Shown: positions 18,001 through 24,000, counted from the stretch's first letter. The stretch: 64,000 nucleotides of DNA from a cyanobacterium endosymbiont of Rhopalodia gibba (GCA_045159875.1 CP067995.1:2880001-2944000); one strand, 5' to 3'. A program made the numbers.

Positions 18001-21000
18001 TTTAGAGTCACATCGGTTAAAGAAAGTTGTAAGTTTGCTATTGATGTTAGCCTAGTAACAATTCTTTTTTCTCGTAATTATTCCCATCATCTTGAAAATA
18101 GTGTTGTTTGGAAAGTTGCGGTGATTCCCACCGCGAAGAGCATGGATTTTAATCTTTATATTGAAAATCCCAAGGACCAAGCAATTATTCAAGATAGTAG
18201 TTTCGAGCCTTCTGCAACTTGTGTGTTTACTAGTAATATTGAAGGGAACTATTCTTTTCTGCTTAAATTCCTTAAAGGAATGAGAGATTTTAATTTTCAA
18301 ATTGAGGGATTGATAGAATAATTTAATGAAATTAAGTGTATCCACAAGTTATCATGAATCCCCAAATATTTAAAATAACTAAATATTTGGGGATTCATGA
18401 TAACTCTTTTTAAGATGATAAAATCAGAAAAAATTCAACTTATTATTTATATCTTCTACTAGTTTTAGAGGGTTTTTTGATCAAAAAATACAATAATTTT
18501 TCCAATTCAACACTTAATTATTTTACAAATTTTTAACTACAATAAATAAGCTTTTTAGCTACTTTGTGCTAAAAAGCTTATTTATTGTACGTCTAATGTC
18601 TAGTTTCAGCTTTACTCAAAAATTATTTTATATTCCTCTTTAGTTTAATTTATTTTTTAAACTTAAATCTTCTTTATTTGTAAGTAAGATATATGTGTTT
18701 TTAATTTCAACCTAATAAATTTTTTTTCAACTAGCTTTTAAACTATTTCACCTCTCGTTTAAGAACTTTTCTTTGATTGTATCATTGAGTATTAATCTAT
18801 TTCATCTTATGAAATCTATCTGCTACTATTTCAACTTATCGCACTAGTTTATTTAAAGGTAAAAAGTAAGCAGTCAAACGAGATTTTATATCTAAAATAC
18901 CAGACCTCAATAAATGCTGCTTCTAGCATAGAATTGATGTTCTACTCTCTTCATAAATTTACTTGCCTCACAGTAACTTAAAGCAGAGAAATTCGCGCCG
19001 TATGCCTGTATAACTTGTGGAGAGAAGTGTCACAAAATTTTCTACAGTTGTTAGACTAATCTTGTTAGGTAGTTCATTAGTATCTTCCCTATCTGGAGTC
19101 TTTCTTTTAAAATTAGAGATCTAAACGCTATATATAGAGTTTACTTTAGTTAGTCTCGGATAAAGAAGGGATAATGAACCATAAACAGGAATGGCAAGAT
19201 AGCGGTGTTGACGAACAATTGATTAATCTCAATGTGATAGCTTTGGAGGGGAATTCTCCTTTAGAGTATTTGTTTTATTCTGATGCACTTTCTAGACGTA
19301 ATGATGGTCGGGTCAATAATTCCATGTTAAAACGCTATGAACATACAGAACGAGGAGGCTGGTGGTGTTCGGGAATAGATTTATTGACAGGCGGCGAGGA
19401 TTTATGGGGGTGTTTCAAACCCAATTCCCCTCGAACCAGTTATGATAAGCACAAGTTAATCAAATATGAGCATCCCCCTAAAACATCTACAGGGGTTTTT
19501 GCCTTGCGGGTTCCATTGCATCTATGGCGACAATTAGCCCAACGCCACCATCAAGATCTTACTCCAGAAGAGATTAATAATCAACTCCCAGATTTAGGTT
19601 TTTGGCAATGGGTGATAAATCATCCTTCGATTCCCCTTTGTATTACTGAAGGGGCTAAAAAAGCAGGGGCGTTATTAACAGCAGGATATGCTACAATCGC
19701 CCTTCCAGGAATTAATAGTGGCTATCGAACCCCTCGAGATAAGTTGGGCAACCGAATCGGAAAGTCTCATCTCATTCCCCAACTCGAAAAACTAGCGATT
19801 TCAGGGAGGAAAATTTATATTGCTTTTGATCAAGATAGTAAACCAAGTTCTATTAAAGAAGTGAATTCTGCTATTAGAAAATTGGGAAGTTTATTCACTC
19901 AAGCAGGATGTCAAGTTAACGTTATTGTTTGGCTACCGAAATGGGGAAAAGGAGTAGATGATTTTTTAGCGCATAAAGGACTCAAAACTTTTAATGAAAC
20001 TTACGAAAAAGCCTTATCTCTAGAAACTTGGAAAGCACAAAGCTTAAGACAACTAACTTATCCTTCTGATCTTGAAGTCAGTACTCGATATTTAGGAGAT
20101 TTACCCATTCCTACAACTGCTAAATTAGTAGGAATAAAATCTCCAATAGGGACTGGAAAAACTAAGGCTCTTGAAAAGATTGTTGAACAGGCAATCACTT
20201 CTCAACAAAAAATATTAGTAATTGGACATAGAGTTAAGTTAGTTGAGCAACTTTGTCAACGATTTAAAATTCCTTATTTAACAGAAATCGAAGGAAATAA
20301 TGTTAGAAATATAAAAGGATGTGGACTTTGCATTGATTCTCTTCATCCTAATTCTTCATTTAAATTTAATCCTAGTGATTGGACAGATAGTCTAATTATT
20401 ATCGATGAAATTGAACAGGTTTTATGGCATGGATTAAATTCAGATACTTGCAAGGAAAATAGAGTTTCTATCCTAAGATCTTTTAAGAAGTTACTTGAAC
20501 AAAGTTTATATTTTAAAGGAAGAATAGTTATTGCTGATGCAGACTTAAGTGACATTTCTCTTGACTATTTAATTTCTTTGATAGGAATTAAATTAAAACC
20601 CTTTATTGTAATCAACAATTGGAAATCTAACAATAAAGAAGCATGGGGAGTATATAATTATCCAGAAACTACCCCCCAAGAGTGGCTCAAAGATTTAATG
20701 CAACATATCCAGCAAGGGGGTAAACCTTTTGTTTGTCTATCCGCTCAGAAATTAACTAGTAAGTGGGGAACACAAACTCTAGAATTCTACTTAAAAAAAC
20801 GATTCCCAGAAGTGAAAATTCTAAGGATTGATTCTGAATCGTTAACTGACCCTAATCATAACGCTTACCAATCTATCAACCACCTTAATCAAATACTATT
20901 AAATTACGATATCATTTTGGCTAGTCCTTCCATTGAGACGGGAGTAAGTATCGATATTAAAGATCATTTTACCTCTGTTTGGGGATTAGCTCAAGGGATA

Positions 21001-24000
21001 CAAACTGCTACCTCTGTCTGTCAATCACTAGGACGAATTCGTGACAACATTCCTCGTTATCTTTGGTGTGCTTCCTATGGGTTTAATAAAGTGGGAAATG
21101 GTTCTACTTCAATTCCTAATTTGTTAACTTCTAGTAATCGCGTTACTCAGTTAAATATTAAGTTATTACAACAATCTGACCTAGAAGCCTTAGATGATAT
21201 AGATATAGAATTTCAAGCAGAATCTTTACTTTGTTGGGCAAAAATGGCGGTTCGCGTTAATGTTTCAATGATTCATTATCGAGAGTCTATATTAAGAAAT
21301 ATTACTGACCAAAATCATCCAGTTCTTCGTAAGAATAAAGTTTTCAAAATTCAAGATATAAAAAAATATAAAAAATATTCGTATGATAGTAAAAATTCTT
21401 GTCAATTAATGAAAGCAATTGAAAGTATTAGAGAACAAAATTATCAAGAAGAATGCCTAATGGTTGCCCAAGGCAAGGAGATTACTGATCAACAATATAA
21501 AGCGTTAAATAAGAGGTTAGTTAAAACTGTAGTTGAACGGCATAACATCAAAAAATATAATTTACAAAGACGCTATTGTATTGAAGTAACTCCTCAATTA
21601 GTTGCCTTAGATAATGAAGGATGGTACGACAGGATTCGTCTCCATTATTTCTTAACTTTAGGACGTTCTTATTTAGCAGATAGAGACACTATTCTTGCTA
21701 AAAAATTCATAGAAAAAGGACAGGGTAGTCTTTTTGTACCTGATTTTAATAGTTCTCAATTAGGGGGAATTATTGGGACAATGGAGGTATTGGGAATTTC
21801 GGTGTTACTCATGAACCATAAGCGAAAGTTAAAACCTACAGATGAAGACTTGCAAGCGATGGCAAGAATTGCTATTAAAAACCGCGCTGAAATCAAAACT
21901 ATTATGGGAATTGGTATTGCCAAAAATTCTAGTCCTATCACGATTATACGGCGGTTGTTGGATAAAATTGGCTATGGATTAACTTGTATTGGTTCTCAAA
22001 AAGTTAACAAAAAACGAGTGCGGGTGTATCAAGTTGTTCTTCCTAATGATGCTAGGCAAAAGGTGTTTAGACAATGGTGGATAAGAGATGGAAAATCCCC
22101 AGGCAGTTCTGAACCTTGGTTTGAAGAATATACAAATATTAAGTCAGAAATAACTAAAATTCAGCAAGAAGAAAATAAAAATTATATTCAATTAAGTTTA
22201 GAATTTTAGAAATTTACTTCAATCCTTGATCTTAAAAACTATATTTTGTAGAGTGGATTAGATGAAGGTCAGATTTTGAATAAAAAAATCGTAAGTTCTT
22301 ATCTACGTCGTAATCCCTATGATGGGAAATCAATCCGAGTATACCGAAAGAATTCAATACGAGTGATAAATTACACCATATCTTATGCTAATACATCCGT
22401 AGATACCTTGTATACAAGGTATCTACGGATGTATTAGGCAAAAAGGGATACTAAGATGCAGATTTGTATGTAGATGATAGCTAGAAATTTTTAGGAGAAA
22501 CTTAATAGAATTGTTGATTAAATTTTCCCTAAATTCTAGAATAAAAAACTTTAACGCATGGTCACAAATTCTTCGGCAGAAGTGGGATGAATACCAACAG
22601 TAGCGTCAAAATCAGCCTTTTTAGCTCCCATTTTTACTGCAATCGCTACTCCTTGAATAATTTCGGCAGCATGATCTCCTACCATATGTGCGCCTAAAAC
22701 CCGATCACTTTCTTGATGAACAACAAGTTTCATCAAAGTTTTTTCCTGTTTGTCAGGCAATACATAATACATGGGACGAAACTCGCTACTATATACTTTG
22801 ATAGCATCTTTCCCATATTGTTCTTTAGCTTTTGCTTCAGTTAGTCCTACTGTAGCAGCTTCCGGAGTACTAAACACGGCAGATGGAACATTTTCATAAC
22901 TCATCAGACACGATTTTCCCCCAAATTTAGTGTCAGCGAAGGCGCGGCTTTCACTAATAGCGACGGGAGTTAGATTAATACGATCTGTACAGTCTCCGAC
23001 TGCATATATATTCGGTTCTGCTGTTTGATTATACTTGTCGACAACGATCACTCCATTTTGCACTTTAACCTCTGTATTTTCTAATCCTAAGTTCTCTAAG
23101 TTAGGAATACGCCCAGTAGCAGCCAACCCAATGATATCGGCTAACACCATGTCATTATTGCTATCCCCTTCTAGAGAAATTGTTAAACCTTGGTTTGTTT
23201 TTTTGACTTCAGAGATGGAAGAGTTCTTTAGGATGCGAATACCATGTTCTTCCATAGACTCTTGGATTGTGGTTCGGATATCGTCATCAAACCCCTTCAA
23301 GATTTTATCGCGGCGAATAATCTGGATAACATCTGACCCTAGTCCATGCATAATACAGGCAAATTCTACCCCAATGTAACCCCCTCCCCAAATGACGACG
23401 CGCTTTGGTTGTTCGGGTAGTTCAAACATAGCATCAGAGGTCACTAAATATTCTTTTCCTGGAATGTTAGGTTTAATGGGACGTCCCCCCACAGCAATTA
23501 AAACTTTATCAGTTGTAACTTTTTTGCCATCTCCGACTTCTACGGTATGGGGATCGAGTAATTTACCATGGGTACGATACAGTTGAACATTGGATTTATC
23601 CAACATTCTTTGGTAAATACCATTAAGACGACCAACTTCCCTATTGATAGCGGCTATCATTTTAGGCCAGTCGAGGATACTTTTAACCGGACTCCATCCG
23701 TATCCTTGGGATTCTTCCAAGACTCTAGGGACGTGAGAAGTATAAACCATTAACTTTTTGGGAATACATCCTCTATTAACACAGGTTCCCCCTAGACGAT
23801 TAAATTCTGCTAACCCGACTTTAGTTCCATATTCGGCAGCGCGTCTAGCAGCAGCAATTCCTCCTGAACCACCACCAATAACAAATAAATCAAAATCAAA
23901 ATTCATAATTCTACTAAATCTCCTAAATTATAGGTTTAAACTTTTCCCTTGTGCTTTTTTGTACTATTTTTTATTTTAAGACAGTTAGCTATTCAAACAC

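Follow-up and report, generated by a model that had tools for sequence, protein, structure and literature searches.

A chromosomal member of the CyRepA plasmid-initiator family in a dnaA-less cyanobacterial endosymbiont, with a predicted primase-helicase fold and a candidate NrdR operator

How does a chromosome begin to replicate once dnaA has been lost? In cyanobacteria without dnaA, in endosymbionts that fix nitrogen and, by extension, in the ancestors of plastids, the question is treated as open (PMC7198777), and the current proposal for spheroid bodies is that the host controls initiation (preprint 10.64898/2026.03.19.712447). The genome-wide survey's note on the cyanobacterial endosymbiont of Rhopalodia gibba (3,064,642 bases on two contigs) had reported that no functional dnaA is left, and our analysis agrees: the single Bac_DnaA match is a 32.5-bit fragment with two stops, in surroundings full of stops. 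The same note had put forward, as the best candidate for the DnaA-independent initiator in this endosymbiont and in related cyanobacteria, a gene within the window analysed here (the whole stretch of 64,000 nucleotides). We refer to this gene, which lies 2.899 Mb along the main contig (C1, 3.058 Mb), as cyRepA-chr.

19174..22209, + strand: cyRepA-chr, intact 1011-aa ORF with an ATG start, CyRepA1 family, orthologue of slr0554

Both the intact reading frame and the CyRepA1 assignment given by the survey stood. The protein scores 542.2 bits against NCBIfam NF042913 (cut-off 200; residues 316-937), and Pfam detects DUF3854 (5.3e-52, residues 143-270) followed by ResIII (4.6e-9), which is the CyRepA1 layout of an N-terminal DUF3854/Toprim-like domain and then a DEXD-type helicase. 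It contains a Walker A motif (GTGKT) and a DEIE box, and G326, G328, K329, D411 and E412 are invariant among 38 homologues, as are the catalytic residues in general, in chromosomal and plasmid copies alike. No other CyRepA1 copy is present in the genome. The link to slr0554 of Synechocystis comes from an internal-RNA sequence given for that gene (PMC7125299, supplement file 8), which, compared by eye with cyRepA-chr, encodes the same stretch, GQGSLFVPDFNSSQLGGIIGT. CRISPRi guides against slr0554 are present in both libraries (PMC10615215, PMC7125299).

The closest characterized relatives are CyRepA1 (Slr7037, from pSYSA) and CyRepA2 (from pCC5.2), which share with cyRepA-chr the family model, the DUF3854, SF2 helicase and C-terminal domain build, and the invariant catalytic residues. 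However, a CyRepA1 gene of the classic kind would sit on a plasmid next to its own origin, whereas cyRepA-chr is chromosomal, single-copy and vertically inherited, and its short-branched clade is separate from the copies on contigs of 4.8-430 kb; its identity to the aligned copies on such small or secondary contigs is 33-42%. The Synechocystis orthologue is no substitute on pSYSA, since slr0554 does not rescue the plasmid upon deletion of slr7037 (PMC9978351).

The predicted structure divides the protein into three parts:

19174..20058, + strand: DnaG-type primase catalytic core (N-subdomain plus Toprim/DUF3854) without a zinc-binding domain, residues 1-295, predicted fold
20071..21333, + strand: SF2 helicase core, residues ~300-720, ResIII 4.6e-9
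21391..22098, + strand: helical C-terminal domain with a beta hairpin at its end, residues ~740-975, AF2 model

Foldseek matched the N-terminal ~300 residues (primase-core model pLDDT 87) to the RNA-polymerase domain of DnaG with an E value of 2.3e-7. In VIA-align the same model reached Z scores of 13.9, 13.8, 13.2 and 12.9 against DnaG (226 residues aligned at Z 13.9), 11-12 against the T7, T4 and Twinkle primases, whereas topoisomerases did not exceed 7.2. E159, D219, K259, G260 and D262 are invariant, and the Toprim acidic residues E159, D219 and D262 are among them; the model thus predicts a DnaG-type primase, having the RNA-polymerase-domain fold together with these acidic residues. A zinc-binding domain was not found in the model of residues 1-300, which aligns to DnaG from about residue 139 onward, with nothing N-terminal to supply one. 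In this respect cyRepA-chr differs from DnaG, T7 gp4, Twinkle and P4 alpha, which it resembles in fusing primase to helicase as the primase-helicases among them do; moreover, its helicase is SF2 and not DnaB-like SF4 or SF3. The genome encodes a separate DnaG and DnaB.

The remainder of the protein is most similar to the herpesvirus origin-binding protein UL9. It was the best profile match in the PDB (E 3.4e-8, residues 308-484) and, as HSV-1 OBP on OriS (9hgi, 9hgj), the top Foldseek match of the full-length model (E 3.6e-15, 800-890 columns), six orders of magnitude above the next, which points to a UL9-related SF2 core; Walker A, Walker B and T589/G590/S592 are invariant in it. Identity is 12%, and a TM score of 0.34-0.42 with an rmsd of 17-20 Å means that the domains are differently arranged; UL9 also lacks a primase domain. 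UL9 is itself an SF2 helicase, one that recognizes and opens an origin. The C-terminal helical domain is, on the AF2 model, the candidate DNA-binding part. The primase-core fold and the UL9-like remainder are new in this analysis, and the protein would have both primase and helicase activity.

The survey had further claimed full-length, open orthologues in 87 of the 88 other genomes of the family (f1). The 87 matches were recovered at E<=1e-50; that all are full-length and open did not hold. The orthologue is interrupted by a transposase gene in G437, split over two frames in G455 and has a stop near residue 947 in G423, and the matches are only partial, possibly owing to contig ends, in G421 (which also has one internal stop), G454, G129, G464, G462, G468 and G435. 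Identity to cyRepA-chr is 84-91% in the four other spheroid-body genomes (the small genomes of genus g1) and 61-62%, with no stops, in the three UCYN-A genomes of 1.4-1.5 Mb (g153). What the survey had said of descent and constraint was reproduced: (i) in a quick tree, a single clade (SH-aLRT 98) unites 28 chromosomal copies, and the median branch length there is 0.24, against 1.7-3.9 for plasmid copies, (ii) NG86 dN/dS is 0.13-0.19 among the spheroid-body genomes, and we obtained 0.07-0.08 for the orthologues of the 1.4-Mb UCYN-A genomes, and (iii) the order folD-cyRepA-gor is found in all five spheroid-body genomes. In genera g4 and g5, nrdA is the divergent neighbour of the orthologue. By sequence comparison, cyRepA-chr belongs to CyRepA, a family of initiators of cyanobacterial plasmids, but resides on the chromosome and is vertically inherited. 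It is among the chromosomal CyRepA homologues that Sakamaki et al. 2024 (PMC10899382) reported in 80 of 145 cyanobacteria, leaving their function open; the article refers neither to DnaA (0 occurrences) nor to NrdR or the endosymbionts.

In four RNA-seq runs from one sample the gene lies on its own 3.8-kb contig. The depth of this contig is about half that of the gor contig in all four, and it is also lower than that of the folD contig. We did not accept these contigs as proof of transcription, as the same libraries hold contigs of 72-156 kb, so that DNA carry-over is possible, and no transcript ends were seen.

Alternatively, cyRepA-chr might be the trans-acting Rep of the 6.5-kb plasmid, which has no recognizable Rep of its own. 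This second contig (C2, 6,464 bp) has ORFs that are aquaporin-like and FeoAB-like, plus two in which no Rep signature is obvious, such a plasmid is reported from all spheroid bodies (preprint 10.64898/2026.03.19.712447), and Slr7037 is able to act in trans (PMC9978351). Against this, constraint on the gene is stronger in G402 and G403, UCYN-A genomes of a single contig that retain it; the plasmid and the region upstream of cyRepA-chr have nothing but chance words in common; and the chromosomal clade predates by far the lineage that bears the plasmid. We regard this explanation as highly improbable.

Between folD and cyRepA-chr, a stretch of ~700 bp (18290-19000) is full of indels when the five small genomes are compared, and part of it matches dispersed repeats; the sole conserved non-coding element upstream of the gene is of ~150 bp and contains two boxes:

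19084..19099, + strand: distal NrdR-like box, CTTCCCTATCTGGAGT, 5 of 6 conserved positions
19125..19140, + strand: proximal NrdR-like box, ACGCTATATATAGAGT, 6 of 6 conserved positions, its end 33 nt upstream of the ATG

An NrdR box is 16 bp long with conserved C4, A6, A8, T9, T11 and G13 (PMC13584703), and the spacers between paired boxes are of 15-16 bp or, with one more helical turn, of 24-27 bp (PMC12051234). The spacer is 25 bp here and mostly 24-26 bp in the orthologues (15 bp in G157). The loose six-position rule was dropped because it did not discriminate (109 pairs vs 83-97 in shuffles), and profiles built from nrdA promoters only were used instead. With these, the boxes scored 13.2 and 13.1 bits, and the pair came second when both strands of C1 were ranked for such pairs (26.2 vs 19.3 for the next independent site). 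A pair with at least 11 of 12 conserved positions and an allowed spacer precedes 16 of 24 orthologues and none of the eight plasmid-type or f6 copies. In the nrdA promoters of the same lineage, box 1 is the counterpart that the distal box resembles and box 2 that of the proximal box, in the same order, although the spacer there is 15-16 bp and the target here is not an RNR gene; topA of P. aeruginosa is an experimentally shown non-RNR target of NrdR (PMC4409342). The nrdR gene is present (TIGR00244, 228 bits, C1:440542-440979). At dnaB, no second NrdR box was found at canonical spacing.

A palindrome in the upstream region was also considered as a multi-site origin motif and rejected, because the genome is not strewn with it (25 matches with <=2 mismatches, against 54-62 in shuffles). 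For the boxes, an operator is a better reading than an origin, and we infer that NrdR may bind them. With this two-box NrdR-like operator ahead of it, cyRepA-chr would therefore probably be shut off at high dATP and expressed again along with ribonucleotide reductase. This candidate operator is new here and recasts conserved boxes that could otherwise be mistaken for an origin. We came across no publication that ties the chromosomal CyRepA gene to NrdR or to replication independent of DnaA; this search did not extend to RegPrecise or to Rodionov & Gelfand 2005, which may list the site.

Toprim-helicase pairs are found in defence systems. It could be argued on this ground that the gene has nothing to do with replicating the chromosome and serves, for instance, to exclude plasmids or in defence, while host proteins control the start of replication, as proposed in the preprint mentioned above. 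Such a role seems very unlikely to us: the predicted fold is that of a primase and not of an OLD-type nuclease, the gene has been retained in genomes of 1.4 Mb, it combines an NrdR-like operator with an nrdA neighbour in relatives, and it shows vertical descent with short branches. Taken together, the primase and UL9-like fold, the NrdR-like operator and the nrdA neighbour strengthen the link of cyRepA-chr to DNA replication, and our overall verdict is that it is a replication-linked housekeeping primase-helicase.

The distribution of the gene was compared with that of dnaA. Of the 89 genomes of the family, 13 gave no dnaA match; they comprise three clean lineages and, in addition, two incomplete genomes. 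All 13 retain the orthologue, in line with the survey's claim that it is kept in dnaA-less reduced genomes. G402-404, G450, G451, G213 and G267 had no dnaA match. The three genomes in which it is absent or broken (G111, G437 and G455) all carry dnaA, and dnaA-positive relatives likewise retain the orthologue. The related family f9 sets the counter-example: dnaA was found in none of its six genomes and neither was an orthologue of cyRepA-chr, DUF3854 being absent altogether from three of the five tested (G181, G277 and G219), while G161 and G211 have distant copies only, on small contigs. The DUF3854 match of G077, a protein with D5_N and DUF5906 that adjoins an integrase, was not counted as an orthologue because it is part of a mobile element. 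Therefore, another DnaA-independent replication route exists in f9, the extension of the initiator claim to related cyanobacteria is not supported, and cyRepA-chr is not the general cyanobacterial solution to DnaA-free initiation. PriA, DnaB and DnaG are present in this genome, in UCYN-A and in f9, and PriA in every genome checked, which makes recombination- or R-loop-primed starts available.

No replication origin was found from skew, strand bias or searches of the upstream region; as the survey had stated for GC skew, neither this nor gene-strand bias exceeded shuffles. Synechocystis and Nostoc start replication at multiple sites (PMC7198777). AR-seq in Synechocystis, where slr0554 is present, recovered only pCC5.2 (88%) and pSYSX (11%) (PMC10899382), and no piece of its chromosome able to replicate by itself has come out of published screens.

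These observations suit an accessory replication or repair enzyme that re-primes or reopens stalled or broken forks, or aids recombination-dependent synthesis, with rounds starting through PriA/RecA at R-loops or D-loops, as must happen in f9. The f9 genomes keep PriA, DnaB and DnaG without dnaA or CyRepA, skew and a fixed origin are lacking, starts at multiple sites are described in the two cyanobacteria named, three relatives with dnaA have lost the gene or carry it broken, and NrdR control would suit any DNA-synthesis function. Nevertheless, all characterized CyRepA relatives are initiators, a UL9-like helicase with a C-terminal domain is the design of an origin binder, a dN/dS of 0.07-0.08 in 1.4-Mb genomes suggests more than a back-up role, and PriA and DnaG are already there for restart. 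We consider an accessory role a serious but doubtful explanation.

Our preferred reading, held tentatively and with a probability of roughly 0.4, is that the job of cyRepA-chr in the dnaA-less endosymbiont is to start new chromosomal DNA synthesis. The protein would bind and open chromosomal DNA and then lay the first primer, after which the cell's own DnaB, DnaG and Pol III machinery would take over, its own synthesis being repressed at plentiful dATP and released alongside ribonucleotide reductase. In a host without the family, autonomous replication needs no more than Slr7037 and its upstream region (PMC9978351), CyRepA2 likewise suffices (PMC10079941), and a dnaA deletion in S. elongatus is rescued by an integrated plasmid origin (PMC7198777). 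Against the initiator role we count f9, the presence of PriA, DnaB and DnaG, the lack of skew, the AR-seq data, the failure of slr0554 to rescue pSYSA, and the dnaA-positive carriers.

It is tempting, if rather unlikely, to extend the preferred reading to the DnaA-independent cyanobacterial lineages: a domesticated plasmid primase-helicase would act there as an NrdR-gated chromosomal initiator tying rounds of replication to dNTP production, the endosymbionts could have lost dnaA because they already possessed this second, dNTP-coupled initiator, and the host would not have to supply one. The f9 genomes set a limit to any such extension, as whatever cyRepA-chr does, at least one other DnaA-free route exists in cyanobacteria. 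For the spheroid bodies, cyRepA-chr represents a concrete symbiont-encoded alternative to host control, with an orthologue, slr0554, in a genetically tractable model, and the candidate NrdR operator gives a regulatory handle on it, as cyRepA expression might be expected to follow that of RNR.

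A whole-genome search of the endosymbiont (3,064,642 bases in two contigs) recovered cyRepA as its only CyRepA1-type gene, at 2.899 Mb of the 3.058-Mb contig:

19174-22209, plus strand: cyRepA, one uninterrupted frame of 1011 codons

Its product scores 542 bits against NCBIfam NF042913 (CyRepA1, cyanobacterial plasmid replication proteins; cut-off 200) and matches Pfam DUF3854 (5e-52) together with the ResIII helicase N-terminus. The sole trace of dnaA in this genome is a Bac_DnaA match of 32 bits with two internal stops at C1:2619209-2619400 of the main contig (locus L001, outside the window). 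This fragment is a dnaA relic and, because both the fragment and the frame around it are riddled with stops, we conclude that dnaA was lost by decay in place. An intact, single CyRepA1 gene in a dnaA-less genome, as described in the genome-wide survey's note, is thus confirmed. The gene is flanked upstream by folD and downstream by a convergent glutathione-reductase-like gene (gor), an arrangement kept in all five small endosymbiont genomes of the genus.

The folD-cyRepA spacer contains two long, near-perfect inverted repeats (18346-18397 and 18543-18588), at or near which the contigs from four RNA-library runs break (18360-18368, 18556-18618). Its portion at about 18430-18960 is 68-85% identical to some 20 other chromosomal places, consists of dispersed AT-rich repeat remnants and is rich in indels across the five small genomes. 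At the other end, cyRepA contigs from four RNA libraries stop where those over gor begin (22405-22418), a shared boundary that would fit a two-way terminator common to both genes. The RNA-seq contigs are not proof that cyRepA is transcribed.

Within the family, matches at E<=1e-50 were found in 87 of the 88 other genomes, with identities of 84-91% in the four other small endosymbiont genomes and 61-62% in the three genomes of 1.4-1.5 Mb (genus g153, UCYN-A in the survey's note), where the frames are open. The earlier count of full-length open orthologues in 87 of 88 genomes therefore holds for the matches but not for their integrity: the copy of G437 is interrupted inside the DUF3854 domain by an IS30-like transposase gene and that of G455 is spread over two frames. 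No copy was found in G111, and several further genomes, left outside the tally of lost or broken copies, gave partial matches only. The G437 insertion (HTH_38 and rve domains, L046 3763-4749 on G437:C1) lies in a closed, dnaA-positive genome of 5.8 Mb. When 401 genomes sampled across the phylum were searched, every full-length copy more than 50% identical came from a family of the same order; weak matches numbered 5 among the 34 genomes of the picocyanobacterial f25, and the 12 families pooled at the end of the tally gave 12 among 217.

When 38 copies were compared in a quick maximum-likelihood tree, 28 chromosomal ones, drawn from seven families, formed a single short-branched clade (SH-aLRT 98) congruent with taxonomy; outside it fell the copies of family f6 and those carried by contigs of 4.8-430 kb, on branches of 1.2-3.9. 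Nei-Gojobori dN/dS values were 0.13-0.19 among the small endosymbiont genomes and 0.07-0.08 among those of g153. These results bear out the vertical inheritance and purifying selection claimed previously. In Synechocystis the orthologue is slr0554: an internal RNA under slr0554 (PMC7125299, supplement) encodes the same protein stretch when read by eye.

The dnaA gene was not found in 13 of the 89 genomes of the family, which comprise three clean lineages (five small endosymbiont genomes, three of g153 and three of g154) and two incomplete genomes, and all 13 retain cyRepA under purifying selection. The third lineage, g154 (G405, G406 and G407; 2.8-3.8 Mb, 90-99% complete), keeps cyRepA in every genome at 54-58% identity. 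Copies are lost or broken in three genomes, each with dnaA, which is only consistent with a role in initiation, since the independent events are too few for significance.

Phylogenetic footprinting of the 5' regions revealed a palindrome, CGCTATATATAGAG in this genome, 24-117 nt ahead of the start; at up to four mismatches it occurs in 23 of 24 members of the chromosomal clade versus none of 8 other copies. It is preceded, at a distance of about 41 bp, by a second box. Both fit the 16-bp NrdR box, for which PMC13584703 gives C4, A6, A8, T9, T11 and G13 as conserved, and their 25-bp spacer falls within the class with "one extra turn" (24-27 bp) as set out in PMC12051234. Box pairs with an allowed spacer and at least 11 of 12 conserved positions were present in 16 of 24 orthologues (21 at 10 or more) and in none of the eight plasmid or f6 copies; most pairs at 11 or more were equalled in 0-3 of 300 shuffles. 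Genome-wide, the bare six-position rule was non-discriminating (109 pairs, against 83-97 in shuffles), so we derived two profiles from the nrdA promoters of 11 genera (22 box pairs) and scanned the whole chromosome on both strands with eight spacers. After nrdA, first by construction, the cyRepA site ranked second (26.2 bits, each box about 13); the next independent site reached 19.3, with one box weak. The genome has an nrdR gene, and the distal (19084-19099) and proximal (19125-19140) boxes resemble, in identical order, boxes 1 and 2 of the lineage's nrdA promoters. Furthermore, nrdA is the divergent neighbour of cyRepA in genera g4 (G133, G137, G187, G281) and g5 (G179). Taken together, we read the pair as a predicted NrdR operator, and cyRepA is best described as a predicted member of the NrdR regulon; so read, the boxes would link cyRepA to the programme of dNTP and DNA synthesis and would no longer be evidence for an origin.

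In the divergent g4 and g5 pairs each gene has its own box pair. Two single boxes with 6/6 NrdR positions each (C1 ~128016 and ~127870, outside the window) lie 221 and 75 nt ahead of the dnaB start; being 146 bp apart, they form no canonical pair. The dnaB frame, at 946 aa, is about twice the usual length and may contain an intein.

The full-length AlphaFold model, built from 28 homologues, reached pLDDT 83 and pTM 0.82. Residues 1-303, modelled separately (pLDDT 87), fit best the DnaG primase RNA-polymerase domain (Foldseek E 2e-7; VIA-align Z 13.9, 13.8, 13.2, 12.9) and lack a zinc-binding domain; Z values were 11-12 against T7, T4 and Twinkle primases and at most 7.2 against topoisomerase Toprim folds. 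The closest solved relative of the remainder is the HSV-1 origin-binding protein UL9 on OriS (fold E 3.6e-15, runner-up Mfd 7e-9; sequence profile E 3.4e-8), although overall TM is just 0.34-0.42. Invariant in all 38 copies, including plasmid-borne ones, are the Toprim acidic residues E159, D219 and D262, Walker A G326, G328 and K329, Walker B D411 and E412, and the TGxS motif (589-592). The chromosomal protein has thus kept the complete catalytic equipment of its plasmid relatives, which are proven initiators, sufficient in a naive host (PMC9978351, PMC10079941). As the genome also encodes DnaG, DnaB and PriA, the cyRepA product does not stand in for the primase or helicase of elongation.

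DUF3854 also occurs in a 1007-aa protein (G077:C1, L045 694-4783) with D5_N and DUF5906 (SF3-type primase-helicase), adjoining a phage-type integrase, and therefore acts as the primase part of mobile replication proteins of a second type. DUF3854 ORFs are reported among the novel ORFs of a fern plastome (PMC6220310), so the domain would appear to move with mobile DNA in organelles as well.

We propose, tentatively (probability roughly 0.38), that the cyRepA product starts chromosome replication in this endosymbiont, as the single most likely specific mechanism. In favor of this are (i) its homology to sufficient plasmid initiators, (ii) the full catalytic set, (iii) its retention under selection without dnaA, (iv) the predicted co-regulation with ribonucleotide reductase and (v) the precedent of S. 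elongatus, where integrating a plasmid origin rescued a dnaA deletion (PMC7198777). Against it counts the related family f9, with dnaA in none of six genomes and no cyRepA orthologue: DUF3854 is wholly absent from G181, G277 (a single 4.3-Mb contig) and G219, and G161 and G211 carry copies on small contigs only, 29-35% identical. The match in G077 was rejected as a counterpart, being the integrase-adjoining protein. Of the order's sampled genomes 16 are dnaA-negative, and 7 of these are without a chromosomal CyRepA-type gene; PriA was found in every genome checked, which makes recombination- or R-loop-primed starts a ready alternative. GC skew and strand bias of the chromosome did not exceed shuffles, and sequence comparison found nothing shared between plasmid C2 and the cyRepA locus. 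In Synechocystis, an AR-seq assay with inserts of just 1.5-2.5 kb recovered no chromosomal fragment (PMC10899382), and pSYSA without its own CyRepA1 gene, slr7037, was not rescued by slr0554 (PMC9978351). A close rival, itself tentative, is that the cyRepA product is an accessory restart or repair enzyme. As to the wider claim of the survey's note, a DnaA-independent initiator across related cyanobacteria, it is not supported, family f9 being without dnaA and without an orthologue.

The existence of chromosomal CyRepA homologues was already in print, in 80 of 145 cyanobacteria, with their function left open (PMC10899382); new here are the NrdR reading of the boxes, the protein folds and the counter-example of f9. 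CyRepA is certainly not a universal DnaA-independent mechanism of cyanobacteria; judged from its sequence and models, it is a genuine primase-helicase with predicted activities, of housekeeping type, linked to replication and descended from plasmids.
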